A stretch of DNA of 20,000 bases from an uncultured virus (IMG/VR IMGVR_UViG_3300017642_000062) (lineage: Duplodnaviria > Heunggongvirae > Uroviricota > Caudoviricetes), in the IMG/VR virus record IMGVR_UViG_3300017642_000062; one strand, written 5' to 3'. This document shows, in pieces, positions 1,714-19,475 of the stretch. A program made the translations under genes and the position numbers. The notes under the pieces are model-generated. The model made no database searches, was not told where the DNA came from, and worked only from the letters and a program-made list of their open reading frames with translations. Position 1 is the stretch's first letter, and each line of letters opens with the position of its first letter.

Positions 1714-1866
1714 ATTCGCCGCTCCTTTCTTTTATTCTGCCGGCAGTGTAGTTAGTGTACCACGGTTTGGTATTTATTGCAGAGAAAAGATAATTAATAA
1801 CTTTCGACTGACTTCGACCAGTGATATCCTGTATGTGTGGATTTTATGTTGTTGGGGAGGATTTGT

Positions 1867-2505: not shown

Positions 2506-2528
2506 ATTTTTGAATTGAGGTGACGCCG

Positions 2529-4487
2529 TTGGCAAAAAAGAAATCGCTGCCGAGTATCCAAGTGGAGGCGGACGGCGTTGAGTATGCGCGATATAGTAGC
2601 CACGCCCAAAAGGATGCCAGCATTGAGCAGCAGATAGAGAAGTGTGATGAATTCGCATCTATAAATAAAATCCATATCATTGAGAGATATAAGGACAGGG
2701 CAATTACCGGAAAGACTGATCGGCGCGCCGACTTCCAGCGGATGATGCACGATGCAGAAAAAGGGAAATTCAAATATGTCATAGCATGGAAATCAAATAG
2801 AATGGGTCGCAATATGCTGGAAGCGATGTTGAACGAGGCGAAGCTTCAAGACCTGGGAATCCGGGTTCTGTATGTTGAGGAGGACTTCGACGATACCGCA
2901 GCCGGGAGGTTTGCGCTCCGGTCCATGATGAATGTCAACCAGTTTTATAGCGAGAATATGGCGGAAGATATCAAGCGAGGGCTGTACGACAATGCCGCAA
3001 ACTGCAAAGTTACCAACGGGCATCTTCCGTATGGCTACAAAGCGGACGAAGATTTGAAGTATACGCTGGATGATTCAAGGGCCGCTGTCGTTCGGGAGAT
3101 ATTTACACGCGTCTCTTGTGGAGAAGCCATTGTTGATATCTATACAGATCTTAATTTGAGAGGGCTTACAACCTCTCTCGGAAACCAGTGGGGGAGGAGC
3201 AGCTTCAACAAGCTGTTGTCGAATGAGCGGTATCTGGGTATATATATTTACGGAGACGTCAGAATTGATGGCGGGATTCCTCGAATTGTTAGCGATGAAT
3301 TGTTTTACAAGGTGCAGGAGGTGTTGAAAACGAAGAAGAACGCCAGAGGGCGTCATCGTAATGATGCGGCCGATTATCTGCTTACCGGGAAATTGTATTG
3401 TGGGCATTGTAAAAGTCCAATGACTGGAATTTCAGGCACAAGCCGGACTGGCGCTTTGCATTACTATTATGTTTGCCAAAAGAAGCGGCAGGAAAAGTCG
3501 TGCGAAAAGAAGAACGTCAAGCGTGATGAAATCGAGTTGCAACTCGCAAGAGCCATAAAGGAATATTGCCTGACCGACGATCTGATTGAGTGGTATGCAG
3601 ACAAAACTGTTGAATATTTCAAACGTCAGTCTGAAACCGACCATATCAAAGATTTGCAGGAAGATCTGGCTAACACGCAGCGCAGCATAAAAAACACCCT
3701 CAAGGCCATTGACGCCGGGATTATCACAGAAAGTACCCGGACTCATCTTATAGAATTGGAGGCAAAACAATCGAGGCTTTCTGGAGCAATCTCTGCCGCA
3801 AAATCCGATGTCGTGCAAGTCGACCGCGAGGATCTAATTAGCAGCATGGAAATGGTGCGGGACGGAGATACCTATGACAAAAAATATCAAGCGCTGCTGT
3901 TCGATACTTTTCTCATACGGGTCTATTTATACGATGACGATCTGGAACTCATATTTAGTTGCCCTGGTGTTAAAAACTCAATAAGAATTCCGTTGGATAT
4001 TTCAGCAGTTGAAAATACAGAAGAAACAGCCACCTCAACGGTTCGTTTAAGCTCAACTTTGAGCCACCATATAAGAACGCTAATATTGATACGGTTAGTA
4101 TCGGTGTTAGCGTTCTTATTTTATGCCCGAAAAGCCTGTATTTACAGGCTTTTTTGTGTTTCTACACTCTATCACTTCTTTCACCTATACGAAAAATGCA
4201 CCCGCCGACCGTGTAAATTTGCCCTTTTTTATACCCTCGCAGAACGATTGCTTGCAAGGGGGTGCAAATTTCGGAGGGGGGTGCATTTTTTCATAGAGGG
4301 GGGTGCAAACGAAAAAAGAGGCCAAGCCTTACAGCTCGACCTCAATCTCTGTGCCGTTCTTAAACTCAAACACCATCCTGCCGTCATGGAAAACCGTAGC
4401 CTTTTCCAGCAATCCAACCCACAGCCTTTCGTTCCAGCTTTCGAGGACGAGGGGCTGTTCTTTTATGGATTCAATGAAAAGCCTTAG
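2529..4487 (+). CDS. Large serine recombinase (prophage integrase); recognisable part ends near 4069 and the remainder is read-through past the att site
   Basis: Catalytic YARYSS motif, recombinase domain, Zn ribbon (LTGKLYCGHC...YYYVC...C), coiled coil; likely TTG start at 2529 after GAGGTG. Confidence 0.9.
   Translation: MAKKKSLPSIQVEADGVEYARYSSHAQKDASIEQQIEKCDEFASINKIHIIERYKDRAITGKTDRRADFQRMMHDAEKGKFKYVIAWKSNRMGRNMLEAMLNEAKLQDLGIRVLYVEEDFDDTAAGRFALRSMMNVNQFYSENMAEDIKRGLYDNAANCKVTNGHLPYGYKADEDLKYTLDDSRAAVVREIFTRVSCGEAIVDIYTDLNLRGLTTSLGNQWGRSSFNKLLSNERYLGIYIYGDVRIDGGIPRIVSDELFYKVQEVLKTKKNARGRHRNDAADYLLTGKLYCGHCKSPMTGISGTSRTGALHYYYVCQKKRQEKSCEKKNVKRDEIELQLARAIKEYCLTDDLIEWYADKTVEYFKRQSETDHIKDLQEDLANTQRSIKNTLKAIDAGIITESTRTHLIELEAKQSRLSGAISAAKSDVVQVDREDLISSMEMVRDGDTYDKKYQALLFDTFLIRVYLYDDDLELIFSCPGVKNSIRIPLDISAVENTEETATSTVRLSSTLSHHIRTLILIRLVSVLAFLFYARKACIYRLFCVSTLYHFFHLYEKCTRRPCKFALFYTLAERLLARGCKFRRGVHFFIEGGANEKRGQALQLDLNLCAVLKLKHHPAVMENRSLFQQSNPQPFVPAFEDEGLFFYGFNEKP
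4040..4069 (+). other. Putative att junction resembling a tRNA 3' end (possibly tRNA-Phe)
   Basis: GGTTCG (T-loop-like) at 4040-4045 and TGAGCCACCA at 4060-4069; coding character collapses immediately afterwards. Confidence 0.6.
4071..4122 (+). terminator. Long hairpin or intrinsic terminator after the att site
   Basis: 22-bp stem ATAAGAACGCTAATATTGATAC / GTATCGGTGTTAGCGTTCTTAT, fully paired as RNA with 3 G:U pairs, followed by a short T run. Confidence 0.7.
4130..4309. repeat. Element-end motifs: a palindrome plus GGGGGTGCA repeats
   Basis: AAAAGCCTGT-ATTT-ACAGGCTTTT at 4130-4153; AG5-6TGCA at about 4257, 4275 and 4297; inverted copy GAAAAATGCACCC at 4191-4203. Confidence 0.7.
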
Positions 4488-5524
4488 TTCACGGTCGCGG
4501 TCTTGTTTCCGTGTCCGCTCGTCGCTCAGTTCGTCCACTCGTTTTGTGGCTTTCTCGTAACGCTTGACCAGCGCATTGTACTTTTTCGTGTATTCCTCTT
4601 GGGACTGCGCCGAAGAAGCGTTTTCCCTTACGCAGGACTTGACCATTTCGGCAACTACTTCGATTTCCTCTGACAGCCGGTCGATTTGCGCATCCAGTGC
4701 CGTGCAGTCCGAAACAGCCAATCGCATGAGCTCACAGTCGCTGATAACTGACTCGCGGCTTGCAATAAGCCGGTCGTAGGCAATCAGGAACTTCTGCTGG
4801 ATGGTCTCCGCATCGAGGTGCGGCGTAGCGCATCGCTGTTCGCCTTTGAATTTACTGTTGCAACGCCATATCACCTTGCGGTAGGTGTCGGTGGAGTGCC
4901 AGACCTTCTGCCCATAGAATCCACCGCAATCGCCGCAGACCAGCTTGGACGAAAACACGCTGTTGCCGCTGTAGGCTCTGCCGAGCGTCTTTCGGCGGGC
5001 AATCTCTGCCTGCACCATGTCCCATTCGACAGGACTGATAATAGCTTCGTGGCTGTGTTCCACATAATACTGCGGCACTTCGCCCTCGTTGGGCTTCATC
5101 TTTTTCATCAAGAAATCGACTGTGAACTTCTTTTGCAGAAGAGCATCACCCTTGTATTTCTCATTGGAGAGCATACTGTTTACCGTGGTCTGGCTCCATT
5201 TCTTTTTGCCGGAAGGTGTCGGAACGCCCTGTGCATCAAGGTATCGGCAAATTCCGGCAGGCGTCTTTCCCTCAAGGAAAAGCGTATAGATGAGCCGTAC
5301 AATGGTGGCTTCCTCCTCGTTGATAACAGGAGTGCCGTCCGCGCCTTTTTCGTAACCGAGGAATTGCTTGTACGGCATACTGACTTTGCCATCAGCAAAA
5401 CGCTTTCGTTGCCCCCATGTGACATTCTCGGAGATTGAGCGGCTTTCTTCCTGCGCAAGGCTGGACATTATCGTGATGAGCAGCTCGCCCTTGCTGTCGA
5501 AGGTGAAAATGTTCTCTTTTTCAA
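4329..5524 (-). pseudogene. Large serine recombinase, 5'-truncated or interrupted (catalytic N-terminus missing)
   Basis: Frame extends upstream of the annotated Met as EKENIFTFDSKGELLITIMSSLAQEESRSISEN (end of resolvase domain), then loses similarity and meets an in-frame TGA at 5531-5529; recombinase domain and Zn ribbon (CGDCG...WRC) intact. Confidence 0.85.
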
Positions 5525-5643
5525 GCAGTCATTGATTGCTACCATATCGTATTGGAAAGTTGAGAAAAGTGCCGTACTGCGGCCTTTTGTTGCTCTCAAA
5601 AGTGTGTATCGTGGCGCTTCGTGACCGACCGTTTAGAAGATTA

Positions 5644-5704
5644 AAACACCAAATAAACACCAAGCTGCAAGGCAATCTGTGCCTGTCATACAGCTTGGTG
5701 TTTT
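5644..5704. repeat. Candidate integrase arm-type sites and/or int terminator
   Basis: AAACACCAA twice in tandem (about 5644 and 5655) plus inverted TTGGTGTTT (5695-5703); AAACACCAAGCTG...CAGCTTGGTGTTT forms a stem. Confidence 0.55.
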
Positions 5705-5737
5705 TCTGTGTGGGAAGGCTTTTCTGTGCTGTGCCTC

Positions 5738-7099
5738 TCATACATCCGCCGTAGCCAGCGCCGTTGAAATGGCGTCGGAGGCTTGCTTCATGGTTTCGGC
5801 AAAGACGTGAGCGTAAATCGTCTCAGTGGTGCGTGTGTCCCTGTGGCCCAGATGCTCGGAAATCACCTTCACCGGCACACCCATGTTTATCAGGAGCGAG
5901 GCGTTTGCGTGGCGCAGGTCGTGGATATGTACATCCGGGAAATCGTGCTTGGCGAGAAGCTGCTTAAATTGCAGGTTGATATAGGATTTTGCCATGTACT
6001 CGCCGTATGACCCGGTGAAAACGGCTCCACGGTCAATCCAGCGTTTTCCTACAGCTTTCCGGCGCTCGTCCTGCCATTCCTTCTGCTCACGCAGGGTCTC
6101 CACCAATTGTGGCGGCAGCGCAATCACGCGGGCGCTGCTCTTGGTCTTGGGCGTGGTGAGCCGGTATTCTCCGTCCAGCCGGTAAAGATTGTACTTGACT
6201 GTAAGCATGGCCCTGTCCAAATCGACTTCATCCCAGTGCAGGGCGGTCAGCTCACCGACACGCATTCCAGTGTATAGGAGCGTTTTTATTACCCTCGGCA
6301 ACTGCGGATTGGTAAACTCATCGAGGAAAGTCATCAGTTCTTTACATTGCTCGGCATCAAGGTAGACGCGCTCCTTTTCCTCTCCGGCAGGCGTGGTGGC
6401 GTTCGTGACCGGATTTTTCAGCAGGAGCTCCTTTTTTACCGCAGTCGAGAAAATAGGTGACAGCGCTGTGCGGATACGCTTTATGGTACCCACGTCCAGA
6501 CTGCCACCTACTTCTTCTACAATAAATATGTCTTTCAACTTTACGCCCAGTGCCTCGGAAATCCTGACGGCAGTTTCCTTCAGGACCGTTTCACCGTTAC
6601 CGAGAGTGCGCAGTGTGTTCATGTTCACGCCGGACTTGCGGGCCAGCGGTCGGCGGGTACCGTACTCCAGCGTGGCAACGTCGCGCAGCTTGTAAGTTTC
6701 CCGTTTGCGACCGTCCCGGTACAACTCGTTGAACAGAGCGTCTATCCTCGCCGTGTTGATGTCCTTCAGCTTCATATTGCCGATATACGGCAGTACATAT
6801 AAGTTCATCAATTCCCGGTTATTTGCATAGGTGGCCGGTTTCAGCTTGTGAACGGCGATCTGCTCGTAATACCATGTCGCCAATTCCGAGAAGCGGATGT
6901 TCTCGTTCATATTCACCATGCCTTCACAGTGCTTCTCAAACTCGTAGGCATAGGCCATCGCCAGCTTGTCCGCTTTGCCCTCGGTCACACCCTCTGGCGG
7001 CGTGAACGTCGTATTTTTGCGTATCTGCTTACCGTATATATCGTAGCCCTGCGACACCATAATTCTGTAGGTGTCGCCTCGTTTCTGTACGCTCGGCAT
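5738..7099 (-). CDS. int: Tyrosine integrase with an internal HTH-like insertion
   Basis: Catalytic motifs TGMRVGE (R), TPKT (K), HDLRH, LGH and IYAH (Y); N-terminal arm-binding-like region; GGAGGG RBS before ATG 7099. Confidence 0.92.
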   Translation of the reverse strand: MPSVQKRGDTYRIMVSQGYDIYGKQIRKNTTFTPPEGVTEGKADKLAMAYAYEFEKHCEGMVNMNENIRFSELATWYYEQIAVHKLKPATYANNRELMNLYVLPYIGNMKLKDINTARIDALFNELYRDGRKRETYKLRDVATLEYGTRRPLARKSGVNMNTLRTLGNGETVLKETAVRISEALGVKLKDIFIVEEVGGSLDVGTIKRIRTALSPIFSTAVKKELLLKNPVTNATTPAGEEKERVYLDAEQCKELMTFLDEFTNPQLPRVIKTLLYTGMRVGELTALHWDEVDLDRAMLTVKYNLYRLDGEYRLTTPKTKSSARVIALPPQLVETLREQKEWQDERRKAVGKRWIDRGAVFTGSYGEYMAKSYINLQFKQLLAKHDFPDVHIHDLRHANASLLINMGVPVKVISEHLGHRDTRTTETIYAHVFAETMKQASDAISTALATADV

Positions 7100-7155
7100 C
7101 TGCCATCCCTCCATTCCGTAGTGGTATGTTCGCTCTGAACCGTGAAGAAGTCAAC

Positions 7156-7767
7156 TCATTCTTCTGGGTCAGGGCGGTTTATTTTTATCGTCCGATCCTC
7201 AATGGCAAGCCCTCGCTTAACAAGCTGCCTGAGAATGAATTCTTCGATATATTTCTGCAAATCCCAGATGAAATAGCCCTCAAGGTCAATGTTCCCCATG
7301 TGGCTGCGGTCTACATTGCCCTCCTCGACGGATTTAATCTGGGACGATTTGAGCGCGGCATCGTCAAGGAAATCGTAAAAATCTCGGTCGGAGAGCAGTT
7401 CGTTAATGGTTTCCATGAGAGTAGGCCCACCCTCGAAGGAAGCGGCGTCCTTTGCTCTTTTGAGCATATCTATTGCCTCCTCGGAGAGGCCCAGTTCCTC
7501 ATGGATGGATTTATTCTCGGAACTGACGCCCGTCAGCAGGTAATCCACAGATACGCCGAAGAACTCCGCTATCTTGACAAGCGTTTCCGGCGTCGGCTGC
7601 GTCTCTCCATTCTTATATAAGCTCACAGTCTGCTGCCGGATGCCGATTGCTTCCGCGAGCTCTTTGAGCGTGGTCTTTGCGTTTGTCTTTGGATGATGGT
7701 CAAGCAGCTCTCTCAACATCTTGGGGAACATCCCGTCATATCCAACTACTTGTAGCGCCATCGCCAT
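7156..7767 (-). CDS. XRE-family master repressor (Stl/ImmR-like position)
   Basis: LKELAEAIGIRQQTVSLYKNGETQP...IAEFFGVSVDYLL HTH_3 signature; AAGGAG RBS. Confidence 0.9.
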   Translation of the reverse strand: MAMALQVVGYDGMFPKMLRELLDHHPKTNAKTTLKELAEAIGIRQQTVSLYKNGETQPTPETLVKIAEFFGVSVDYLLTGVSSENKSIHEELGLSEEAIDMLKRAKDAASFEGGPTLMETINELLSDRDFYDFLDDAALKSSQIKSVEEGNVDRSHMGNIDLEGYFIWDLQKYIEEFILRQLVKRGLAIEDRTIKINRPDPEE

Positions 7768-7778
7768 ATCTCCTTTAA

Positions 7779-7902
7779 CTTTCGTTTTTCTTGAACTTTC
7801 TATTTTGCATTTCGGTTCTATTGATATTTCGCTTTTCCTGTGATATTATCATCATAACAAGCAAAACGAATGTTGTCAAGAGAAAATAAAGGAAAACGAA
7901 AA
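7779..7902. promoter_or_regulatory. Overlapping opposed promoters of the island switch with TTTCGnTTT-like operator repeats
   Basis: Rightward TTGATA(7821)-17-TATTAT(7844) with TGn; leftward TTGACA(7879-7874)-17-TATGAT(7856-7851) with TGn; TTTCGTTTT/AAAACGAA-like motifs recur in both orientations. Confidence 0.65.
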
Positions 7903-7921
7903 AAGATTGGAGGTACCGAGG

Positions 7922-8107
7922 ATGGCAAAGAAACCACTGGATAAAGCGGCGGCGGAGGCCCGGAGGGAATATTTCCGGGCATGGCGCAGGAAGAACGGCG
8001 ACAAGGTCAAGCAGTATAACGCCGACTACTGGCGCAGACAGGCCGAAAAGAAACTCACGGAGGAGGCGGGTACAAATGGAACAGCCAAACATGATGACGG
8101 TGCGTGA
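7922..8107 (+). CDS. Small basic helical protein, first gene of the rightward operon
   Basis: GGAGGT RBS, ATG 7922; ARREYFRAWRRKNGDKVKQYNADYW. Confidence 0.75.
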   Translation: MAKKPLDKAAAEARREYFRAWRRKNGDKVKQYNADYWRRQAEKKLTEEAGTNGTAKHDDGA

Positions 8108-8321
8108 AATCGCCCGCACGGGCTTGCTCTCGGAGCACGCGCTCCGGCTCATGCTGAAAGCCGGTAAACTCCCGGCAATTTACATCGGCAAAAAGGCGCT
8201 CATCAATTACGATAAGCTGTGCGCTGAACTGCAAGGGCTTGAGGCGGATTTCGCGGCAGAGCCTGTAAGCGACCCGTTCCTGCCGACGCTGCCGGGTGGA
8301 ACCCCGTTCAGGCGCGGCTGA
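8076..8321 (+). CDS. Excisionase-like winged-helix (HTH_17/MerR-like) DNA-binding protein
   Basis: MMTVREIA...LRLMLKAGKLPAIYIGKKALIN pattern; GGAGG RBS. Confidence 0.75.
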   Translation: MEQPNMMTVREIARTGLLSEHALRLMLKAGKLPAIYIGKKALINYDKLCAELQGLEADFAAEPVSDPFLPTLPGGTPFRRG

Positions 8322-8413: not shown

Positions 8414-8557
8414 ATGAAAAACCGCAAACGGCAGCGGGAGAACCGCAAAGAAGAAAAACTGGATAAAACGAATCATACGGGAGTAAAAGATTTGACTCCA
8501 TACAATGCCGTCCGGCTGATGCGTAGCGGCAAAATTTATGACATCAAATATAAATGA
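8414..8557 (+). CDS. 47-aa basic hypothetical protein (below the ORF-track cutoff)
   Basis: AAGGAGG RBS at 8401-8407; MKNRKRQRENRKEEKLDKTNHTGVKDLTPYNAVRLMRSGKIYDIKYK*. Confidence 0.6.
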   Translation: MKNRKRQRENRKEEKLDKTNHTGVKDLTPYNAVRLMRSGKIYDIKYK

Positions 8558-8595
8558 ACAGCGCCATAAGCGCTCCGCAGAAAGGAGGTGGCGAG

Positions 8596-10899
8596 ATGGA
8601 GAAGCGAATGCCGGACCCCATGCTGGAGCTAAAACAGATGCGGATCTGGATGCTGTGGCGCTGGGAAGTCAAGGAAAATGGTGAGCGCACGAAGGTGCCT
8701 ATAGCTGCTGGCGGCGGCCCGTCCGGTACCACAGAGAAGTGGAACCGTACATGGGTCACATATGATGAAGTGGTAAAGGCGGAGGAAAAAAATCCTGCAG
8801 CGGCCGGTATCGGCTTCAAGATACCAGAAGGCTACTACTTCATTGATATAGACCACAGAGCGCTTACTGACCCGCTTGTGCAGACGATTCTTTTACGGCA
8901 TGATTCGTATGCGGAATACTCGGTCAGCGGCACCGGCATCCACCAGTACGGTAAATGCGATTTTACGCAAATTCCCACCTATATTGACAAAAACGGAAAG
9001 CTGAAGCTCGACGGGCAGTTCTATACGAAAAATCCCAATAACGAAATGGAACTGTACATCGGCGGCATCACAAACCGCTTCGCAGCCTATACCGGAAATG
9101 TGATTGAAAACAAGCCTCTCCGGGAGTGTACCGCCGCTATCCTTACTACCTTAGATAAGGATATGCGCCGCGCGAGAAAGGTCAAATACAGCGTCAAGCG
9201 TGACGGAGAGAAGGTTACTTTCGATCTTATTTGCAATCTCCGCAAACAGAAAAACGGCGAAAAATTCTGTAAATTGTTTGACAAGGGAGACTTCAGCGAC
9301 TACGGTTCCCAGTCTGAAGCGGACGCGGCGCTCTGCGCGTTGCTCGCATTCCGTGCAGGACCGGACCCGGAAATGATAGACGCCGTCTTTCGGCAGTCGG
9401 CATTGTACCGGGATAAATGGGATCGAGAGGATTACCGGGATGCCACCATTGCCCTCGGCATCGAAGCCTGCCACGGCGTGTTCCACAAGTCAAAAATGGA
9501 TCACCCGTACTTCATCCTTTTTGACGATGATGGTAAGCCCTTTGTATCCGCTCCGCTACTGGCCAAATATATTCGTGAAAACCAGAGATACATCCTCGTC
9601 CGGGACAATGGCAAACAAGGCACACTCATCTACGTTTATAAGAACGGCTGCTACCGGCTATATGCCCCGGATATGATGAAGGGCGTCATCAAAGGCTATA
9701 TCGCGGCGTATGACGAAACATTGGTAAGAATGACTCTCGTCAGCGAAGTGTATGGCCAATTGACTACAGACCTTAACTATGTCAGTCAGGATGAGCTCAA
9801 CGCCGACGAGAGTCTTATCAACTTTACCAACGGCCTCTTGCGCGTGACAGCAACGGAACTGACGCTGCTGCCACACTCCCCGGATGTTCTATCGACTATT
9901 CAGATTCCATGCAGATGGACCGGGCATCCAGAGCCTACGCCGACCTTCGACCAGTATATCACGGACTTCACAAGCGTCGATAAGGCCATCGAGCAACTGC
10001 TTTTGGAATTTATGGGCGTTGGTCTTTCCAACGTGAAGGGCTGGCGTATGAAGAAGTCGCTGTTCATGGTAGGCGATGGCGATACCGGAAAATCCCAGCT
10101 AAAAAGCCTCACAGAGCTGTTGCTCGGTAAGGGTAATTTCATCGGCATCGACCTGAAAGAGATTGAGGCCCGGTTCGGCACCGGTGCTATCTATGGTACC
10201 CGCCTTGCCGGTAGCTCAGATATGAGCTTTCTGTCCGTGGACGAGCTAAAGACCTTCAAAAAGATCACGGGCGGCGACAGTCTGTTCGCGGAGTTCAAAG
10301 GACAGCAGGGTTTTGAGTACACCTACAACGGCCTGCTCTGGTTCTGCATGAACCGGCTCCCCAAGTTCGGCGGCGACGACGGCCAGTGGGTCTATGACCG
10401 CATTATGGTCGTAGAGTGTAAAAACGTGATTCCGAAGGACAAGCAGGATAAGACTCTGCTTGACAAAATGTACGCCGAGCGCGAGGGCATCGTCTACAAG
10501 GCTGTCAAAGCCCTCCAGACAGTCATTTCCAACAGCTATCGCTTCTCCGAACCGGATTTCGTCAGCAAGGCTCGTGACACCTATATGTGCGAAAACAATA
10601 CCGTTATTAGCTTCTATCACGAGTGCATGGCAGAGCGCCCACAGCCGGGTACGGTTAAGGACACCTGCACCACTGGGAAGGTTTATGACGTCTATAAGGC
10701 GTGGTGCCACGACAACAATAATGGCTACGCCAAGACCGCCAAGGAGTTCCGTGACACGCTGGCCGGGATGCTCGGCAGCACGTTTAAAGGTATGACCATT
10801 CATACAGACAAGGGCACCTGCTACCGCGACCTCACGCTCACGATCGACGCAAAGCAGCAGTACCAAAGGGAGTACGGTTATGATGAGCTTCTCGGCTGA
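8596..10899 (+). CDS. Primase-polymerase/SF3 helicase (P4/D5-family primase with NrS-1-like N-terminus)
   Basis: AEP-like DIDH and SVSGTGIH motifs, helical bundle (SQSEAD...FRQSALYRDKWDR), D5_N-like region (INFTNGLL), Walker A GDGDTGKS; AAGGAGGT RBS before ATG 8596. Confidence 0.9.
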   Translation: MEKRMPDPMLELKQMRIWMLWRWEVKENGERTKVPIAAGGGPSGTTEKWNRTWVTYDEVVKAEEKNPAAAGIGFKIPEGYYFIDIDHRALTDPLVQTILLRHDSYAEYSVSGTGIHQYGKCDFTQIPTYIDKNGKLKLDGQFYTKNPNNEMELYIGGITNRFAAYTGNVIENKPLRECTAAILTTLDKDMRRARKVKYSVKRDGEKVTFDLICNLRKQKNGEKFCKLFDKGDFSDYGSQSEADAALCALLAFRAGPDPEMIDAVFRQSALYRDKWDREDYRDATIALGIEACHGVFHKSKMDHPYFILFDDDGKPFVSAPLLAKYIRENQRYILVRDNGKQGTLIYVYKNGCYRLYAPDMMKGVIKGYIAAYDETLVRMTLVSEVYGQLTTDLNYVSQDELNADESLINFTNGLLRVTATELTLLPHSPDVLSTIQIPCRWTGHPEPTPTFDQYITDFTSVDKAIEQLLLEFMGVGLSNVKGWRMKKSLFMVGDGDTGKSQLKSLTELLLGKGNFIGIDLKEIEARFGTGAIYGTRLAGSSDMSFLSVDELKTFKKITGGDSLFAEFKGQQGFEYTYNGLLWFCMNRLPKFGGDDGQWVYDRIMVVECKNVIPKDKQDKTLLDKMYAEREGIVYKAVKALQTVISNSYRFSEPDFVSKARDTYMCENNTVISFYHECMAERPQPGTVKDTCTTGKVYDVYKAWCHDNNNGYAKTAKEFRDTLAGMLGSTFKGMTIHTDKGTCYRDLTLTIDAKQQYQREYGYDELLG

Positions 10900-11487: not shown

Positions 11488-11514
11488 CCATAACAACATT
11501 TGGAGGAAAAACTT

Positions 11515-12441
11515 ATGAATAACGAAAAGAATTATCTCATCGGCACACCTGAATACGACAAGCACTTCTGGAACGCCATGCGCGGAGCAAAAATCGACAC
11601 GGCTCTGGAAGCTGGCAGAAGCAGCGTTACCAACTCCTACGCTCTGCCGAGCGCCGCAAACAACAAATACACGGCGGCGCTGGCCACTGAAAGCCTGTTC
11701 CGGCAGATCGGTACAACTGTTATGGCCTACGATTCCGAGTACCGCATTTTTGCCCACGACTGCGATGATCTGGCACAGTGGGTTCCAGAGGGCGGCAAGC
11801 TCCCGATCTTTGATGGCGCGAACGACTTTACCCGGTACAAGGTAGATAGCTGGAAACTGGGCGCACTCGTGAAGCTGGATGAGGATTTTGTGCGTGATGC
11901 TACCTTTAATGTGGAGGACTATCTTGTACGGCGTCTGGCAAAGAATTTCGGCAGGGCCGAGGACGCCGCCTTCATCAGCGGCACCAGTGAGCAGATGCCC
12001 ACGGGAATCCTCAACGCCACGGGCGGCGCGGAGATCGGCTGCACCGGCAGCATCACATACGACGACGTCATCAAGCTGTACTTCTCTGTCAAGCCGGAGT
12101 ACCGCAAGAACAGTGTATGGCTCATGAACGACGAGACTGCGCTGGCTCTGCGTACACTCAAGGATAGCTCTGGGAATTACCTCTGGCGCGACAGCGATGA
12201 CACCATTCTCGGCAAGCGTGTGGTCATGAACAGCGCCATGCCCTCTGTGGCGGCAGGCGCAAAGCCGATTGCCTTCGGTGATTTCAGTTATTACTGGGTC
12301 ATTGCCCGTGGCCCGGTCAGCGTGGTGCCTATTATGGAACACTTCACGCTGAATCAGCAGATTGGCTATCTGGCGTTTGAGTTCCTTGACGGAAAACTTA
12401 TCCGTCCGGAGACCATCAAGGTGCTGCAAATAGCCGAATAA
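11515..12441 (+). CDS. HK97-fold major capsid protein homolog lacking the N-terminal delta/scaffold region
   Basis: EYDKHFWNAMRG, AEDAAFISGT..MPTGIL, WLMND, LKDSSGNYLW, ILGKRV, AFGDFSYYW and DGKLIRPE motifs; GGAGG RBS before ATG 11515; 308 aa. Confidence 0.88.
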   Translation: MNNEKNYLIGTPEYDKHFWNAMRGAKIDTALEAGRSSVTNSYALPSAANNKYTAALATESLFRQIGTTVMAYDSEYRIFAHDCDDLAQWVPEGGKLPIFDGANDFTRYKVDSWKLGALVKLDEDFVRDATFNVEDYLVRRLAKNFGRAEDAAFISGTSEQMPTGILNATGGAEIGCTGSITYDDVIKLYFSVKPEYRKNSVWLMNDETALALRTLKDSSGNYLWRDSDDTILGKRVVMNSAMPSVAAGAKPIAFGDFSYYWVIARGPVSVVPIMEHFTLNQQIGYLAFEFLDGKLIRPETIKVLQIAE

Positions 12442-12576: not shown

Positions 12577-12581
12577 GCCGG

Positions 12582-13220
12582 TCACCGGAATGCCGAATTG
12601 CCCGTAAGGTTTTTAAGCAGTACCTTACGGGCAATTTTGTATTCGTCACCAATGAAACCCAGCCGCAGCAGGAAACAGCGGAAAGCGTACTTGTCGTTGT
12701 CGGTCTCGGCTATCACGGCCACCACGCGCTTTTGCTTTCGAGCCATCTCGCATAGCTTGGTAACAAAGGCAGAGTAGGCATTGACCTCGTCCGGTTCCGA
12801 TGTGAACGGAAACCATGGAAAGCTGACCGTTGTATCGGTGACTACCGCCTCAATAGAATCAGCCAGAAACGCTTTCTTGAAAAGAGGCGCTCTGGCTGTT
12901 ACGATTTGCTGCAGTGTTTCAATGTTGGCGTTGGTGAAGAGTTCCCTCGGCATGGAGATTGTGAGCCTGTCCTCGGTCTCAACCGCCTCGCCTACATACC
13001 CACGGGAGCGCAGATGCTCAAGCAGCGTCGTTGCCGTTTCCTCCGCCACGCAGTCCGGTATGATTAGCTTTCCGTCCCGCTCCAGAGTGCAATCACCGAT
13101 TTGGTAAGAGCAGGTGGGATAGCCCAGGTACTTGGGAATGGTGTGCAGGACCACGCTGATGTCCTCGGCAAGCTGCTTTCTCTGCTTGCCGGTGATGTTG
13201 TAGGGTATGGTCATTTTCAT
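12582..13220 (-). CDS. Prophage-type 'virulence-related protein' family hypothetical
   Basis: Conserved C-terminus NDKYAFRCFLLRLGFIGDEYKIARKVLLKNLTGNSAFR and N-terminal GKQRKQL...KYLGYPT; AAGGAGG RBS. Confidence 0.75.
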   Translation of the reverse strand: MKMTIPYNITGKQRKQLAEDISVVLHTIPKYLGYPTCSYQIGDCTLERDGKLIIPDCVAEETATTLLEHLRSRGYVGEAVETEDRLTISMPRELFTNANIETLQQIVTARAPLFKKAFLADSIEAVVTDTTVSFPWFPFTSEPDEVNAYSAFVTKLCEMARKQKRVVAVIAETDNDKYAFRCFLLRLGFIGDEYKIARKVLLKNLTGNSAFR

Positions 13221-13420: not shown

Positions 13421-13651
13421 ATGGCTACCTCATATAACAAGTTATGGAAACTGCTTATAGACAAAAAAATGAGCAAGGCTGACTTGCGGAAAGCCTCCGG
13501 CGTGTCTCCCAACACGATGACCAAGCTGCGCCGGGACGAGCCGGTCATGCTCAATGTGCTGGACAAGATATGCAAAACCTTGGATGTCAACTATGGGGAT
13601 ATCGTTGATTATATTGTGGATGAAACCGGTGGAAAGGATGTGGAGCAATGA
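13421..13651 (+). CDS. Cro/C1-type HTH_26 regulator (controller-like) heading the R-M operon
   Basis: SYNKLWKLLIDKKMSKADLRKASGVS...LDKICKTL signature; ATGA overlap with hsdR. Confidence 0.88.
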   Translation: MATSYNKLWKLLIDKKMSKADLRKASGVSPNTMTKLRRDEPVMLNVLDKICKTLDVNYGDIVDYIVDETGGKDVEQ

Positions 13652-16047
13652 GTTATAACGAGGCTGATACAAGAGCCAAATTAATTGACCCTACTATTCA
13701 CGCAAAAGGCTGGACAGAAGACCACATCAAGCGCGAGGTATCTGCCGGAACAATTGAAATAACAGGTAAAAAAGCCAAGCGGCTAAAAAAAGGCCGTGTT
13801 GACTACACACTTCGTCTAAGGGTGAATAGCGATTCTCAACCGATAGCCGTTGCGCTCATTGAGGCAAAGAAAGAATCATTGTCACCCGGTTTTGGCTTGG
13901 AACAAGGCAAGCGCTATGCAGAAACAAAGTGCAATAATCTAAATATCAAGTTTGTCTATTCCAGCAATGGACATATGTTTGTTGAATATGATAGATTCAC
14001 CGGACTTATCAGCAATCCGAAGCCGATGAGCGAATTCCCAACTACTGAAGAACTCCGTCGTCGCTATGAGGAGGGCATGGGATTCAGTCTTGCAGACGAA
14101 AAGGCCAAGCCACTGCTTGCAAAGTATACTGGTGGTGAATCTGCAAGACGCTATTATCAGGATGCTGCAATCCGAGCAGCATTTGAAAAAATTGCCCAAG
14201 GTGGCAACAGAGTATTGCTTTCACTCGCAACAGGAGCGGGCAAGACTTTTATCGCGGTAAATTTGCTAAAACGTATTTCTGATGCCGGACAGCTTCGTAA
14301 GGCTCTTTTTGTATGTGACCGTGACGAATTACGCACACAGGGTAACAAAGCTTTTCAGGATAAATTCGGCAGTAATGCCGCTATCGCCATAGCAGGTAAT
14401 CCACAGCATAATGCGCGTGTGATTATTGCAACCTATCAGACACTTGGTGTGTCCGCCGATGACGATGATCCTTCGTTCTTGGTAGAGAATTACCCAGAAA
14501 ACTACTTCAGCCATATTGTTATTGATGAATGCCACCGCAGCGCATGGGGCAAGTGGAGCGAAGTCTTAAAACGCAATCCGGATGCAATTCAAATCGGATT
14601 GACCGCTACTCCGCGCCAAATAAAAGTACCGGAGGGTGTCGCTATAACCCCAGAAGACGAACGAATTGCAGCAGACAACATAAAACACTTTGGTGAAGCA
14701 GTGTATGAATACACATATCAACAGGCTGTAGAGGATGGTTACCTTGCCGCCTGCGTGATACAGCCTGGAAATGTTAACATTGACGATACCGGTTTAACCA
14801 TTGATGAAATAATGGCCTTAAAGCCACGTCATGCCATTACGGGTAAATTGATGACGCGAGATGAGCTGCAAGAAATCTATACAAGTCACGATTTCGAGCG
14901 AAAAATTATGTTGCCGGATCGTGTTCAGATTATGTGCAAGAATCTGTTTAATTATCTTCTTGAGACCGGTTCTCCTCTGCAGAAGACAATCATTTTCTGT
15001 GTTAGGGAAAGCCATGCCTCCGCTGTTGCTGCTGCTATGAACAACCTTTATATTGACTGGTGCAACAGCCACGAGATAGAACAGAGCAAGCGTTCGGCAC
15101 ATTATGCCTTTAACTGTACATATCACGAAGGCAAGGACTATGTTGCCGATATGAAAGGTAGCACAAAGGATTACTTTATTGCAACGACCGTAGATCTGCT
15201 TTCTACTGGCGTTGATATTCCTCCGTTGCGTAACATTGCATTCTTCCGCTATTTGGAATCGCCAATCACTGTTATGCAGATGTTTGGACGCGGTACCAGA
15301 CTGTTTGAAGACAAGCTGATGTTCACTATTTATGACTATACTGATGCTACCCGTCTATTGGGCGAAGAATACATCTCAAAACCCAAGTCTGGCGGCGGCC
15401 CCTCTCTACCCGGTGGGGATGGCACCGGTGATGATGGAGAAAACGATGGAAATGATGGCGGTGATGGCGGCAAAATCCCTAATATCATCACAGCAGACGG
15501 TGTGGAATGCTATATTACCAACGGCAGCAAATATATCGTTACTGAGATTGAAGGCAAGATTGGCCGAATGCCGCTGGAAGAATATAAGGAAGCTATTGCA
15601 CAAAGGCTTGTCAACAACTATGACACCATTGACAGTTTCCGCGCAGCTTGGATTGACCCGTCCTCAAGGCAGGAAATAATCAATGGTCTGGTTCGCAGCG
15701 GCTATGGGCCGGAGGTCGTAAGAACGGTCGAAGATATGCAGGCTTTTGATATTTATGATGTTCTGGCTGAGCTTGCCTACGGCTCTGAGCCGAAAACACG
15801 CAGCGCAAGAGTGTCCGGGTTCAAATATAAAAATCGAGCGTGGCTGAGCCAATTCTCTGCGGATGTGGCAGAGGTCATCCTTGCCATTGTTTCCGAATTT
15901 GAGACGGACGGAACCAAAGCCTTGGAAAATCCCCAGATTTTCAGAACAAACAAGGTGATGCAGGCCGGCGGTCTTCGCGTCCTTAAAAGTGCTGGAAAAC
16001 CGAATGAAATTATAGCTGAAGCTAAACGGAGGATCTTTGTAGCATGA
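13648..16047 (+). CDS. hsdR: Type I restriction enzyme R subunit (EcoAI/EcoEI-like)
   Basis: NEADTR start, nuclease motif DY...IEAKK, Walker A ATGAGKT, DECH box, GLTATP, LLSTGVD, QMFGRGTRL. Confidence 0.93.
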   Translation: MSYNEADTRAKLIDPTIHAKGWTEDHIKREVSAGTIEITGKKAKRLKKGRVDYTLRLRVNSDSQPIAVALIEAKKESLSPGFGLEQGKRYAETKCNNLNIKFVYSSNGHMFVEYDRFTGLISNPKPMSEFPTTEELRRRYEEGMGFSLADEKAKPLLAKYTGGESARRYYQDAAIRAAFEKIAQGGNRVLLSLATGAGKTFIAVNLLKRISDAGQLRKALFVCDRDELRTQGNKAFQDKFGSNAAIAIAGNPQHNARVIIATYQTLGVSADDDDPSFLVENYPENYFSHIVIDECHRSAWGKWSEVLKRNPDAIQIGLTATPRQIKVPEGVAITPEDERIAADNIKHFGEAVYEYTYQQAVEDGYLAACVIQPGNVNIDDTGLTIDEIMALKPRHAITGKLMTRDELQEIYTSHDFERKIMLPDRVQIMCKNLFNYLLETGSPLQKTIIFCVRESHASAVAAAMNNLYIDWCNSHEIEQSKRSAHYAFNCTYHEGKDYVADMKGSTKDYFIATTVDLLSTGVDIPPLRNIAFFRYLESPITVMQMFGRGTRLFEDKLMFTIYDYTDATRLLGEEYISKPKSGGGPSLPGGDGTGDDGENDGNDGGDGGKIPNIITADGVECYITNGSKYIVTEIEGKIGRMPLEEYKEAIAQRLVNNYDTIDSFRAAWIDPSSRQEIINGLVRSGYGPEVVRTVEDMQAFDIYDVLAELAYGSEPKTRSARVSGFKYKNRAWLSQFSADVAEVILAIVSEFETDGTKALENPQIFRTNKVMQAGGLRVLKSAGKPNEIIAEAKRRIFVA

Positions 16048-17210
16048 CTTTACACAAGGTATATAAAAGCGTTCCGCTTGGCAGTATATGTGAAATAATA
16101 TCTGGTACAACTCCTTCATCAGCTGTTCCAGAATATTGGAACGGTGAAGTAAAATGGATAACACCTGCAGAACTGTCAGATGACACGTTTTATGTTAATG
16201 ACAGTGTTAGAAAGATAACATCACGGGCTGTCAAAGATTGCTCCCTTCGTCCTATTCCAGCAGGTACCGTTATTTTGTCTTCTCGTGCGCCGATAGGAAA
16301 AGTTGCAATTGCAGCAACAGAATTATACTGTAATCAGGGTTTTAAGAATCTCGTTTGCTCTGAAAAGATTGACAACCTATATCTTTATTGGTTTTTGAAG
16401 GCAAACACCGATCATCTTAATTCATTGGGAAGTGGGGCCACTTTCAAAGAAATATCAAAGAAAGTCATTGAAAAGGTCGAAATCCCTCTACCGCCTATTG
16501 AGATTCAGCAGTCGATAGCTACGAAATTGTCAAAGCAATTATCAGCCATTGATGTACTGGCAAAAAAGACAGAACGGCAATTACAAGACGCCATTAGCCT
16601 TGTTGCTCGTATCAATAAACAAACGATTATATTTAATGGTAAGAAGCAACCGCTTTCCAAGTATTGTTCTGAAGATAAACGGATTATTCAACCAGAATTT
16701 GAAGAAGCAAAAACTCTGAAATATCTTGGAATGGAGAATATCGACAAGGATACCTGGGAGTATATAGCAAGTACGGATATTCTTTTATCTGGCAACAGCA
16801 CAACATATTATTTTAATGAAAACCATGTGCTTTATGGAAAGTTGCGTCCATACTTAAAAAAAGTATTTTTGCCGAAAGAGGCGGGCAGGTGTTCAACCGA
16901 ATTAATACCGCTCCTACCAGCAGATACAATGGAACGCGAGTATTTAGCGCTATTATTAACCGATGATGACCTTGTTAGCTACATCATGAGTGAATCAACT
17001 GGGGCACGGATGCCACGTTCAGATATGAAGAAACTCCTTGCATATAAAGTGGCTGTACCGGATATTGATGAACAACGGGCACGCTTGAAGGCAAGAAATG
17101 AGCAAATGAAAAAATGTACAGAGTTAATTATAAAACTCTGTAAACAGCAGGAAAACATTACAGCCCTGCGTGAATGTGTATTTAAAGAAGCCTTTGGAAA
17201 CGAGGAATAA
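16044..17210 (+). CDS. hsdS: Type I R-M specificity subunit
   Basis: Two TRDs with conserved motifs (SGTTP..YWNG, NQGF, IPLPPIEIQ, YGKLRPYL, VPDIDEQ); ATGA overlap with hsdR. Confidence 0.93.
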   Translation: MTLHKVYKSVPLGSICEIISGTTPSSAVPEYWNGEVKWITPAELSDDTFYVNDSVRKITSRAVKDCSLRPIPAGTVILSSRAPIGKVAIAATELYCNQGFKNLVCSEKIDNLYLYWFLKANTDHLNSLGSGATFKEISKKVIEKVEIPLPPIEIQQSIATKLSKQLSAIDVLAKKTERQLQDAISLVARINKQTIIFNGKKQPLSKYCSEDKRIIQPEFEEAKTLKYLGMENIDKDTWEYIASTDILLSGNSTTYYFNENHVLYGKLRPYLKKVFLPKEAGRCSTELIPLLPADTMEREYLALLLTDDDLVSYIMSESTGARMPRSDMKKLLAYKVAVPDIDEQRARLKARNEQMKKCTELIIKLCKQQENITALRECVFKEAFGNEE

Positions 17211-17213
17211 GAG

Positions 17214-18710
17214 ATGGCAAAAAAATCAAAACAAACAAGCAGCCAGAGTGCATTGAACAGTGAAATTAAGAGCATTTGCGATATAATGCGCCGCAGTAAT
17301 TGTGCCGGGGCTATGCAGTATGTACCGGAACTGACATGGATATTGTTCTTGCGTATTTTAGACGAGCGTGAAGACATCGAAGCAGAAGAAGCGGAAGCAC
17401 TGGGGCAGCGGTTTGATTATAGTCTGGAATATCCCTACCGCTGGCGTGACTGGGCCAACAAAGAAGGAAAAAAACGAAATGAGCTTGTGCAAGGTGCTCT
17501 TGGTGAGTACTTTTCTTTCATTAATGATGACCTGATTCCACATTTAAAAAGTCTTGGTGATATCCCGGACTCCAGTGCCCGCCAAAAGGTTATTGCACAG
17601 ATCATGTCCGGCGTGGAGAGAACCCGTGTGGATACTGAGAAGAATTTCCTTGATATTCTCGATAAGGTTGACGATATCAAGCAAAGCAACATAGATGACA
17701 CACATATTTTCACACTCAGTCAGATTTATGAAGGCCTTCTGCTCAAGATGGGCGAAAAAGGCAATGACGGAGGTCAGTTCTTCACACCGCGTGAGGTTAT
17801 CCGTGCCATGATTCGCATGGCAAATCCGAAGGTAGGCGAAAAAGTATACGACCCTTGCTGTGGTACAAGCGGATTTCTCGCGCAGGCCTACACGCAGATG
17901 ATTGCAGGAGACAATACGGCGGAGGACATCGAAACACTGAAGAATTCAACGTTCTATGGTCGTGAAAAAGAAAATCTTATTTATCCGATTTCCCTTGCAA
18001 ATATGATCTTGCATGGAGTCGATCAGCCACATATATGGCACGGAAATACGCTGACTGGCAGTGAAATATATGGCGGTCTATTTGAAAATGCACCAAGCCA
18101 GTATGATGTTATTCTTACCAATCCTCCTTTTGGTGGCAAGGAAGGCAAGGAGGCACAGACCAACTTTGCATACAAGACAAGTTCAACATCCATTCTTTTT
18201 CTCCAGCACATCATCGACAGTCTGAAAAAAGGCGGTCGGTGCGTTATGGTTATAGATGAAGGTGTACTCTTCCGAACTAACGAGGATGCCTATGTCAAGA
18301 CCAAGCGCAAGCTGCTTGATGACTGCAATTTGCATACGATAATCAGTCTCCCAGCAGGGCTTTTCACTTCAGCGGGTGCCGGTGTGAAAACTAATATCCT
18401 GTTTTTTGAAAAGGGAGAATCAACCGAGAAAATTTGGTACTACGATTTGTCCTGGGTGAAGGTAGGTAAGCGAAATCCGTTTACCATTGACCGGTTTGAT
18501 GATTTCTTTGCCCTGTTTCCGACAAAGGCAGACAGCGAGAACAGCTGGACTGTTGACCGGTCAACAATTGAAGCTAATAACTTTGATATCAAGGCTGTCA
18601 ACCCAAACAAGAAGGTTAAGGTCGATACCCGCACCTCTGAGGAAATAATTGCAGAAATTGAAGCCCTTCATAAAGAAATAAGTCTTGAGATTGCGAAACT
18701 TAAGGGTTGA
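17214..18710 (+). CDS. hsdM: Type I R-M N6-adenine methyltransferase
   Basis: GQFFTPR, SAM-binding DPCCGTSGFL, catalytic NPPF. Confidence 0.95.
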   Translation: MAKKSKQTSSQSALNSEIKSICDIMRRSNCAGAMQYVPELTWILFLRILDEREDIEAEEAEALGQRFDYSLEYPYRWRDWANKEGKKRNELVQGALGEYFSFINDDLIPHLKSLGDIPDSSARQKVIAQIMSGVERTRVDTEKNFLDILDKVDDIKQSNIDDTHIFTLSQIYEGLLLKMGEKGNDGGQFFTPREVIRAMIRMANPKVGEKVYDPCCGTSGFLAQAYTQMIAGDNTAEDIETLKNSTFYGREKENLIYPISLANMILHGVDQPHIWHGNTLTGSEIYGGLFENAPSQYDVILTNPPFGGKEGKEAQTNFAYKTSSTSILFLQHIIDSLKKGGRCVMVIDEGVLFRTNEDAYVKTKRKLLDDCNLHTIISLPAGLFTSAGAGVKTNILFFEKGESTEKIWYYDLSWVKVGKRNPFTIDRFDDFFALFPTKADSENSWTVDRSTIEANNFDIKAVNPNKKVKVDTRTSEEIIAEIEALHKEISLEIAKLKG

Positions 18711-18763
18711 ATTTAGTTGGGCCTAGTTATTACCTACTCTCTAAATCGACGGAGGTATCCGCA

Positions 18764-19471
18764 GTGATAAACTATAATATTTATTGTGACGAAAGTTGTC
18801 ATCTGGAACATGACGGTATCAACGTAATGGTACTTGGTGCTGTCTGGTGTCCACACGATGCTGCGAGAGAGATAAATGAGCGTATTCGCAACATTAAGGT
18901 ACGAAACGGCATTTCTCCAACAGCTGAAATGAAGTGGACAAAAATAAGCCCTGCCAAGATACAGCTATACGCTGATCTAATAAACTATTTCTTTGACGAA
19001 GGGTTATTACATTTTCGTGCAGTTGTAATCCCCAACAAAAACATGTTAGACCATGTGCGCTTTAATCAAACACATGATGACTGGTATTATAAAATGTATT
19101 TTGAGATGTTAAAACAAATTTTAACACCGGAAGACAGATACAATATTTATATTGATATAAAAGATACGAATTCGAATAGAAAAGCCCAAAAGTTACGGGA
19201 AGTGTGCAGTAATTCTATGTATGACTTCAGTAAAACCGTCATTCGTAAGTTACAGCCGATACGCTCCGAAGAAGTGCAGCTTATGCAAATTGTTGATATC
19301 CTTATTGGCGCGTTGGGCTATGCCAATCGACAATTCTCAGATGAGCACATAAAAAGCACGGCTAAACTTGCCATAATAGACCTGATAAAAAAGCGATCAG
19401 AATACTCCCTGCGTAAAACCACACTTCTGCGGGAAGAAAAATTCAATATCCTTATTTGGGATGCGAGGTAG
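18764..19471 (+). CDS. DUF3800 family protein (possibly phage P1 RlfA-like)
   Basis: N-terminal IYCDES and C-terminal Q..D motif (LMQIVDILIGA); GGAGGT RBS before GTG 18764. Confidence 0.8.
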   Translation: MINYNIYCDESCHLEHDGINVMVLGAVWCPHDAAREINERIRNIKVRNGISPTAEMKWTKISPAKIQLYADLINYFFDEGLLHFRAVVIPNKNMLDHVRFNQTHDDWYYKMYFEMLKQILTPEDRYNIYIDIKDTNSNRKAQKLREVCSNSMYDFSKTVIRKLQPIRSEEVQLMQIVDILIGALGYANRQFSDEHIKSTAKLAIIDLIKKRSEYSLRKTTLLREEKFNILIWDAR

Positions 19472-19475
19472 GACA

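Follow-up and report, generated by a model that had tools for sequence, protein, structure and literature searches.

The 20,000-nt window analyzed here, that is, the whole stretch of DNA presented above, contains from base 5524 to beyond base 20000 what is probably the integrase end of a satellite-like island, inserted in a conserved motif of a serine recombinase (SR) gene and thus lying inside another mobile element, probably its helper. SR genes of this kind stand at the ends of temperate phages of anaerobic Clostridia. Comparison with related loci establishes, at the level of sequence, site-specific targeting, splitting of the gene with a duplicated core, empty sites, recent moves between SR genes and a prophage context, and the population evidence consists of assemblies and contigs throughout. 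The gene content suggests that the island is a phage satellite, and gene disruption makes it plausible that the host phage is locked in place. The features of the window are listed in Table 1.

Table 1. Features of the window and of the integrase end of the island
Feature	Position	Strand	Description
Right end of a different prophage (phage A)	1..4069	+	own large serine integrase gene starting at 2520
SR gene 3' flank	4070..4328	-	part of the SR-bearing prophage end; L108 homologous to 4064-5524 (76%)
SR 3' part	4329..5522	-	397 codons and stop; catalytic domain cut at (F)EKEN
attL core / crossover region	5508..5524	-	TTGAAAAAGAGAACAT on the coding strand, codons (L)-E-K-E-N-I; homology breakpoints, cores duplicated in relatives
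Island arm, core to int	5525..5737	-	213 bp; inverted repeat, hairpin, GGTGTTT repeats, int terminator
Int terminator hairpin	5650-5708		in the island arm
Tyrosine integrase	5738..7114	-	458 aa; HTH_26-like insert at residues 156-200 (Pfam HTH_26)
XRE/CI-type repressor	7156..7767	-	Pfam HTH_3 2.8e-16; PHROG transcriptional repressor families
Small HTH protein	8076..8321	+	heads the rightward genes; candidate excisionase (weak), phrog_10045 E 9e-4
Primase/helicase, replication module	8554..10899	+	phrog_1829 DNA primase 1e-113; Pfam NrS1-1_pol-like_HBD, DUF5906, D5_N, Pox_D5
HK97-type major capsid protein homolog	11500..12441	+	Pfam Phage_capsid 4.9e-62; phrog_10 1.8e-63
Conserved backbone gene	12582..13220	-	'virulence protein' clusters; phrog_2443 6.6e-52, profile 155-414 of 801
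Variable cargo	13421..20000	+	HTH_26 regulator, type I R-M, DUF3800 protein, open frame
Type I restriction-modification	hsdR 13648-16047, hsdS 16044-17210, hsdM 17214-18710	+	
DUF3800 protein	18707-19471	+	
Open frame	19461-20000	+	runs off the window end

The SR gene is cut within its catalytic domain, since its Pfam Resolvase match covers only profile positions 101-144 of 145, while the Recombinase (2.3e-23) and Zn_ribbon_recom (1.2e-8) matches are both complete. The target gene therefore has the architecture of a large serine recombinase (Resolvase, Recombinase, zinc ribbon), with Resolvase truncated. The 397 residues align to residues 131-527 of an intact 527-aa ortholog found in two viral records (L109/L108), with 83.9% identity, which means that ~130 N-terminal residues are missing; this ortholog matches the phrog_95 integrase family (3.4e-146). 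The minus-strand frame through 4329-5648 reads ...GSNQ*LLEKENIFTFDSKGELLITIMSSLAQEESRS..., the same junction being given as ...Q*LLEKENIFTFDSKGELLITIMSSLAQEES..., and homology to empty sites stops exactly at window 5524, while related islands inserted in other flanks start matching at 5508 (L038) or 5518 (L039). These breakpoints place the boundary within 5508-5524. The preliminary description, which had the SR similarity stopping abruptly at the (F)EKENI motif near 5524, is thus confirmed by the reading frame, the Pfam matches and the homology breakpoints.

The DNA to the left of the SR gene and its 3' flank is of different origin. Window 1-4069 matches an IMG/VR phage fragment of 11.7 kb (G001) with 100% identity and diverges from it after that; its serine integrase gene contains Pfam Resolvase, Recombinase and Zn_ribbon_recom, and G001 runs on into regulator genes and ORFs that resemble, by reading rather than by profile scan, an endolysin amidase and a holin. 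The interrupted SR does not belong to this phage A. To the right, the far end of the island falls beyond base 20000, outside the window; a contig of one sequencing run (X1) continues for 346 nt after that base. No k-mer of at least 10 nt from 5440-5760 recurs convincingly elsewhere within the 20-kb window as a second copy of the boundary, and a scan of viral contigs with the last ORF of the window as bait gave no match. Megablast of 4329-7200 returned 0 plasmid matches and one weak phage match, to the SR part only. One contig (L046) is 99.86% identical to window 1-12510, and past this point carries an opposite-strand 562-aa SR and ORFs reading like chromosomal genes; we rejected it as a view of the far end because its island interior is rearranged after window 12510.

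A survey of junctions next to related integrases reveals that the cut is recurrent. The integrase fetched 84 loci (17 genome contigs, 10 viral contigs and 57 metagenome contigs), 56 of which hold an integrase relative of at least 55% identity together with its 3' end; six of these, with less than 300 nt downstream, were dropped, and the remaining 50 collapse to 42 distinct flanks. In 33 of the 42, the flank is an SR 3' part starting at residue 1 or 2 of the fragment seen in the window, in the same orientation and 186-263 bp past the integrase stop, a gap that is too short for the missing ~130 codons. The insertion sites of integrase homologs, which had been proposed as a check, therefore mostly share one target, even though the cut SRs are only 27-72% identical to that of the window (near-identical L046 set aside). 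Next to integrases of 96-100% identity to that of the window lie SR parts whose identity to its own SR part is 100, 70, 34 and 35% (L046, L037, L038 and L039, respectively). DNA homology between the island of L038 and that of the window begins at 5508 and extends over 8.1 kb with 93.6% identity, and the island of R. callidus shares 99.6% identity across 11.6 kb with its counterpart in an IMG/VR record (G411), yet lies in a different SR. Near-identical islands beside different SR parts indicate that the SR fragment belongs to the flank and not to the island. The hosts of the integrase relatives are Clostridia-type MAGs and R. callidus, and the integrase occurs in only 2 of 401 sampled genomes from the class of the latter.

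The other nine distinct flanks are not SR 3' parts and show look-alike words at their junctions. One contains an SR remnant of 8-9 codons (L003), and two are fliY, in two different sequences (L040, L073). In L009 the flank is a flagellar rod gene 3' end, and in L015/L022, where both flanks are seen and share TTGAAAG, it is that of another gene; in the four others the gene was not recognized. In G003, an SR 5' half at the far flank is paired with the rod gene at the near flank, a mismatch that reflects either a rearrangement, with two copies having recombined, or chimeric assembly of the MAG contig.

The missing 5' half of the gene, which the preliminary description proposed to look for together with a duplicated core, is found in relatives. 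Six records have both a readable far end and an SR near flank, namely, R. callidus (G002) and five IMG/VR records (G407-G411), and in 6/6 a Resolvase N-half (profile positions 1-103/106) is separated by 14.1-15.5 kb from a C-part (90/95-144) on the same strand, which argues against a deletion scar. In the complete genome of R. callidus ATCC 27760, the SR 3' part (VVFEKENINTMT...) lies at L018 523-1761 and the integrase at L018 1941-3302, while the 5' half, ~14.2 kb off and also on that strand, consists of a 141-codon ORF that covers Resolvase positions 1-105 and ends ...GVIFEKENTSTAKVP*. Both junctions contain AAGGAAAACA, and joining the halves across it gives, by reading, ...IFEKENINTMT in frame. 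In four of the five IMG/VR records, the far junction reads SR ...TT(C/T)GAGAAG followed by island sequence; the far junction of G408 was not located, and junction sequences were thus read in five of the six relatives. The core common to both junctions is TCGAGAA(G) in the G409/G410 subgroup. In these relatives the 5' halves end 7-25 codons past the core, the 3' SR part is without a start codon at the junction and, on our reading of the sequence, attP carries no replacement for the part that is cut off, which leaves the integrity of the gene dependent on excision.

Uninterrupted versions of the gene complete the picture. When Logan contigs of four runs were compared with window 4000-20000, all four runs being contigs, one contig in X2 and three in X4 were found to follow the SR to 5524 and then leave the window sequence, with consensus AATAAATCTCCGTGCCGTGCTCCTTCAG. 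Its coding strand, translated by hand, reads ...LKEHGTEIYF directly before EKENIF, as expected of an uninterrupted gene. A search of viral contigs with this consensus, a 28-mer, gave three IMG/VR records with an uninterrupted SR (L107, L108, L109), in which the homology to the window begins beside the 28-mer match and ends at 5524. Unoccupied attB sites are hence seen in three viral records and two sequencing runs, with the same break base. In X4, the island end also occurs next to yet another SR variant, EKENIWTLD, on a separate contig. Taken together, these comparisons indicate that the boundary is an attachment site and not a deletion scar. The earlier proposal that the tyrosine integrase uses an SR coding motif as attB is supported by its recurrence, by the two gene halves, by the empty sites and by the presence of the island in different SRs.

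The motif TTYGARAARGARAAYAT occurs six times in R. callidus, every time within a Resolvase hit, and a reversed control gave 0; one copy is occupied and five are free, including that in the first SR of the same trio. Judging from the words at the junctions, target specificity is at the DNA level. The shared short cores, including TTGAAAG in L015/L022, make it most likely that strand exchange occurs within 7-10 bases around TTGARAAG, which encode (F/L)-E-K. The island side adjoining the core reads YTGYTY, and attP thus imitates the codons for (L/V)(L/F)EKE.

Between the core and the integrase gene, whose 3' end lies near the boundary as had been described (stop codon at 5738-5740), repeats of unequal significance are found. 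The inverted repeat AGCAGTCA-T-TGATTGCT at 5524-5540 is present as first described, with 7/8 pairs and a 1-nt loop, but is at chance level: the 20-kb window contains 38 repeats of this quality, and at least one appears in 26% of 500 shuffles of 5440-5760. It also lacks conservation among the 13 related attL regions that were aligned, and all of it falls on the island side of the crossover; we therefore rejected it as the recombinase core site. The second palindrome, at 5565-5588, is likewise present, with a terminator-like hairpin flagged inside it at 5571-5583; its sequence is partly conserved, but the pairing is not consistently kept across relatives, and it was rejected as a conserved hairpin. 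The arm-like repeats, in contrast to these two, are real and sharper than first described. They consist of tandem GGTGTTT copies on the coding strand (5644-5650 and 5655-5661) that are invariant in 13/13 attL regions in the alignment of diverse relatives, and form part of the clearest invariant block, CTTGGTGTTTATTTGGTGTTT (window 5644-5664 on the opposite strand), the first part of which doubles as the 3' arm of the int terminator hairpin. Each of the six far ends that were read (G002, G003, G407 and G409-G411) also has two tandem GGTGTTT copies, 60-80 bp inward of the far junction. We infer that these repeats are candidate arm-type binding sites.

As for the genes of the island, the first is a tyrosine recombinase. 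Enzymes of this type share the catalytic residue pattern R..K..HxxR..H..Y and an N-terminal SAM-like core-binding domain; the integrase matches Pfam Phage_integrase (2.2e-27, residues 251-439, profile 2-170 of 172) and Phage_int_SAM_3 (3.7e-11), and GMRVGE, HDLRH, LGH and IYAH are readable in its sequence. The small HTH protein, for which Pfam gave no match, has a counterpart in L099 that matches phrog_10045 with E 8e-5. The capsid homolog is the only virion-type gene in the island of the window, in which no terminase, portal or protease gene was found; a small terminase (Terminase_4) was found among relatives only in the island of G003. Recent capture of a helper capsid gene was considered for the capsid homolog and rejected, because identity is only 33-38% (38% to the capsid protein of the prophage that hosts the G411 island). 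The backbone gene, which falls in atlas clusters without a Pfam family, is also present in the islands of R. callidus, G003 and G409, while the cargo varies among related islands. No relaxase was found among the island genes scanned. The integrase, XRE protein, primase and capsid homolog of the window, read as genes alone, amount to a satellite-type set.

The context of the split gene points to a host element that is usually, though not in every case, a prophage of siphovirus type ending in a recombination module. In L109/L108, a tail-fibre protein is followed by a holin, an endolysin, two small proteins, a 436-aa recombinase and, last, the intact SR ortholog; in L108, ~400 bp then separate the SR from an ORF that, by reading and without a scan, is response-regulator-like. 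In G411, the SR trio, of which the third gene is split, is preceded by genes for major capsid, head closure, tail completion, major tail, tape measure, Dit, minor tail, tail fibre, holin and endolysin. Tape measure, Dit, minor tail, holin and endolysin genes precede the trio in G408, and tape measure, Dit, minor tail and endolysin genes precede the split SR in G410. In G409, tape measure, Dit and a tail protein are followed by genes of replication type (a DUF2800 nuclease, an ssDNA-binding protein and a DNA polymerase), and no lysis gene was found there. The neighbors in G407 are a methyltransferase, a nicking replication initiator, an HNH protein, an amidoligase-related protein and a gamma-glutamyl cyclotransferase, and 20 kb to each side of the R. 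callidus island revealed no phage structural genes. The split SR hence lies in a prophage in G408-G411, as does the intact ortholog in L109, but this is not seen in G407 or R. callidus. The preliminary description guessed that the host element might be the helper, and this is strengthened by the finding that the cut SR is, in most cases, the recombinase at the end of a siphovirus-type prophage. In L064, a further full-length SR follows the split one. Host elements retain one or two other intact SR genes, and loss of the split SR may therefore not block excision.

These observations suggest the following mechanism. The island, of ~15 kb or more, carries the integrase, a CI-type repressor, an HTH protein, a primase/helicase, a lone capsid homolog and swappable defence cargo (here type I R-M). 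Its integrase would recombine an attP that mimics YTT-GAR-AAR-GAR-AAY with the matching words of SR genes, which specify (F/L)EKEN within the final stretch of the catalytic domain. Integration would leave a 5' part of ~135 codons, with a stop within a few island codons, and a promoter-less 3' part beside int, and precise excision would rejoin the SR gene in frame. The usual target is the terminal member of a group of two or three recombinase genes located behind the lysis genes where a siphovirus-type prophage ends, which puts the island inside another mobile element, probably its helper. Since the insertion separates the catalytic serine domain from helix E and the DNA-binding domains, the split SR is presumably inactive, as expected for enzymes of this family. 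If it is needed for excision of the prophage, as we infer, the prophage cannot leave before the island and would be stuck until then.

A more elaborate version of this mechanism, which we advance tentatively, is that the satellite uses the integrase gene of its helper as both address and ignition lock. Integrating only where such a phage sits would keep it always linked to its helper, and splitting the recombinase would hold the prophage in the chromosome until the satellite is out and has started to replicate. The leftover 3' part, with helix E, the DNA-binding domains and the coiled coil, could, if read through, even bind the attachment sites of the phage as an inactive competitor.

Rather unlikely, in our view, is that the SR motif is a neutral safe harbor for a defence island or mobilizable element that has no relation to a helper, the SR being split without regulatory meaning. 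A motif that is conserved, multi-copy and confined to mobile elements would make insertion costless for the cell, and its presence in six SR genes of one genome, the contexts that are not phage (G407, R. callidus), the use of look-alike sites outside SR genes, the defence-type cargo and the other intact SR genes beside the split one are all consistent with this. However, the primase, the capsid homolog and, in one relative, the small terminase form a set of satellite type, no relaxase is present among the island genes scanned, and the cut SR ends a phage late/lysis region in the ortholog of the window and in 4/5 IMG/VR records, which all argue for a link to a phage.

It is very improbable that the junction is a deletion scar, i.e., that an unrelated deletion or rearrangement removed the SR 5' half and that the integrase ended up beside the gene by coincidence. 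This might be entertained for the window, which ends at base 20000 before any 5' half is seen, and for which near-identical L046 shows a rearranged island interior after 12510, but it is refuted at the family level by the same cut in 33/42 distinct junctions in SRs of 27-72% identity, by the 5' half with duplicated core in 6/6 inspectable cases and by empty sites that break at the same base. There is next to no chance that the SR fragment is a captured or degenerate gene of the island itself, as its constant position beside int in the same orientation might suggest, since it changes completely between islands that are 93-99.6% identical, lies beyond the point (5508-5524) at which island-to-island homology stops and continues into an intact gene at empty sites, which refutes this possibility.

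A satellite-like island that integrates in an SR motif, probably inside its helper, would be of some general interest. Satellites embedded in helper prophages have been described only in 2023, in the late genes of enterobacterial phages (PMC10111431), and a Clostridia-wide family that targets a phage recombinase would show that the embedded habit is general and has evolved independently. It would also add a point of control, namely, whether the helper leaves the chromosome, as opposed to whether it builds virions. Satellites within prophages are described as difficult to call by De Sousa and Rocha (PMC10085698). Provirus callers may merge satellite and helper, 3/5 of the IMG/VR records used here being labeled 'provirus', and in genomes from the gut and from digesters, SRs that look 'truncated' beside a tyrosine integrase are probably split genes rather than pseudogenes. 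Finally, this would be a natural tyrosine integrase whose site is a protein-coding motif common to hundreds of divergent genes, which would explain how one island moves between unrelated phages and would provide a ready-made attB wherever such recombinases occur.

Several known systems share parts of this arrangement. Streptococcal integrative mobilizable elements insert in genes or in the oriT of conjugative elements, and likewise are small integrative elements whose site is a conserved sequence of a larger mobile element; they differ in having conjugative hosts and mobilization functions, whereas no relaxase accompanies the island genes scanned here. Elements such as skin in sigK and SPbeta in spsM of B. 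subtilis, or the Listeria phage in comK, interrupt genes that are restored on excision. As here, insertion splits a coding sequence that precise excision rebuilds, but those are host genes and those elements are moved by serine recombinases, whereas in our case a tyrosine-integrase element splits the SR of another mobile element. The gene set of PICIs and capsid-forming PICIs (cf-PICIs) comprises int, a repressor that diverges from a replication operon, a primase, structural or packaging genes and defence cargo. Our island resembles them in size (~15 kb) and in its comparable gene set, and differs in having a lone capsid homolog (plus a small terminase in one relative) instead of a full capsid set and an att site in a mobile-element gene instead of a chromosomal site.

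The closest parallel is with the helper-embedded PICIs (HE-PICIs) of Enterobacterales reported by Tommasini, Mageeney & Williams in 2023 (PMC10111431), which use 14 sites in lambda-type late genes that stay disrupted until excision. HE-PICIs are tyrosine-integrase satellites inside a prophage gene, with an attP that provides no replacement so that the gene is broken until excision ('regulated gene integrity'), and one integrase clade repeatedly finds sites in prophage genes (PMC10111431); our probable satellite shares these traits. The paper has 0 occurrences of the word 'serine' (PMC10111431), and within the full-text library that we searched no title or abstract was found that deals with a phage serine recombinase gene as the target of a satellite or island. 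The targets of HE-PICIs are late genes (PMC10111431), whereas ours is a recombinase gene, in Clostridia-type MAGs and R. callidus and in siphovirus prophages with serine recombinases. In the HE-PICI scheme, the composite excises first and the satellite later (PMC10111431), an order that would be impossible here if the split SR is the excision enzyme of the phage. While embedding and the logic of gene disruption are already known, the SR gene is a new target for satellites inside another mobile element, and what sets our island apart from known embedded satellites is the class of the target, the phylum of the host and the expected order of events.

As for the machinery that would position the island, its tyrosine integrase contains an unusual insert between the SAM-like and catalytic domains, in which residues 156-200 match the Cro/C1-type HTH_26 (5.4e-5). 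This insert might have a role in site or arm recognition. In every island examined, both arms carry invariant tandem repeats of GGTGTTT and, in one subgroup, this word is found immediately next to the core, the short word common to the large serine recombinase (SR) gene and the island at the crossover (GGTGTTTGAAAAGG). In one island, on locus L028, the junction (at about 11569) reads TAG-AAA-GAA-AAC, with a stop codon opening the core, and that position is thus supplied by the island side.

Relatives of the island are also found within flagellar genes, twice in fliY and once in a rod-protein gene, with words resembling the SR core at the junctions. The two fliY insertions differ in junction sequence. 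The integrase may have acted off target in these cases, or flagellar genes may be another of its regular targets. On a metagenome-assembled contig (G003; L021 1700-17390), the island is flanked by the 3' end of the rod gene on the integrase side and by the 5' half of an SR gene on the far side, mixed flanks that would result if two island copies had recombined or if the contig had been mis-assembled.

Positions of features in the window and in related loci
Feature	Position	Remark
Integrase gene	window 5738-7114 (minus strand)	
GGTGTTT tandem repeats	window 5644-5664; attR (far-junction) regions of L094-L098, L018, L021, L022	
Capsid-protein homolog	window 11500-12441	
phrog_2443 matches	window 12582-13220; L104 11324-12334	same part of phrog_2443
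phrog_2308/SHOCT genes ahead of SR clusters	L109 7728-8361; L106 8268-8693; L104 10617-11093	
fliY insertion	L040 9198-10259	close to gene 5' end
fliY insertion	L073 1487-2554	close to gene 5' end
Rod-protein gene insertion	L009 11622-11729	within gene 3' end

The end of a second prophage, phage A (window 1-4487), adjoins the sequence that flanks the split SR on its 3' side. Since homology to a phage-A fragment (G001) stops at 4069 and that of the SR flank to an intact-SR viral record (L108) at 4064, the two prophage ends meet within 5 bp. Their serine recombinase genes converge, and the phage-A integrase frame is open to 4487 (655 aa vs 546 aa in G001) because the two ends are joined.

SR clusters have recurrent neighbors. 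A small HTH/zinc-finger protein (phrog_2308) is regularly encoded upstream, as is a SHOCT-domain protein in L109 and G409; both are candidate recombination directionality or regulatory factors of these multi-recombinase modules. In Ruminococcus callidus the SR cluster is flanked by amidoligase and GGACT genes. In G407, whose host element is not a phage, the L104 gene just upstream of the SR cluster matches phrog_2443, as does a conserved island gene.

Every island examined also keeps a lone homolog of the HK97-type capsid protein, 33-38% identical to that of the host prophage, and no portal, protease or scaffold genes were found beside it in these islands. Just past the capsid gene, at 12510, the window diverges from a near-identical contig, L046 (99.86% identity over 1-12510). 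Beyond this break, L046 (1-4605) encodes a 562-aa serine recombinase on the opposite strand, followed by ORFs that, by reading, are hpf-, ligT- and LRR-like. The same junction is also present as a loose end in sequencing run X1, and both forms of the island thus occur together in one sample.
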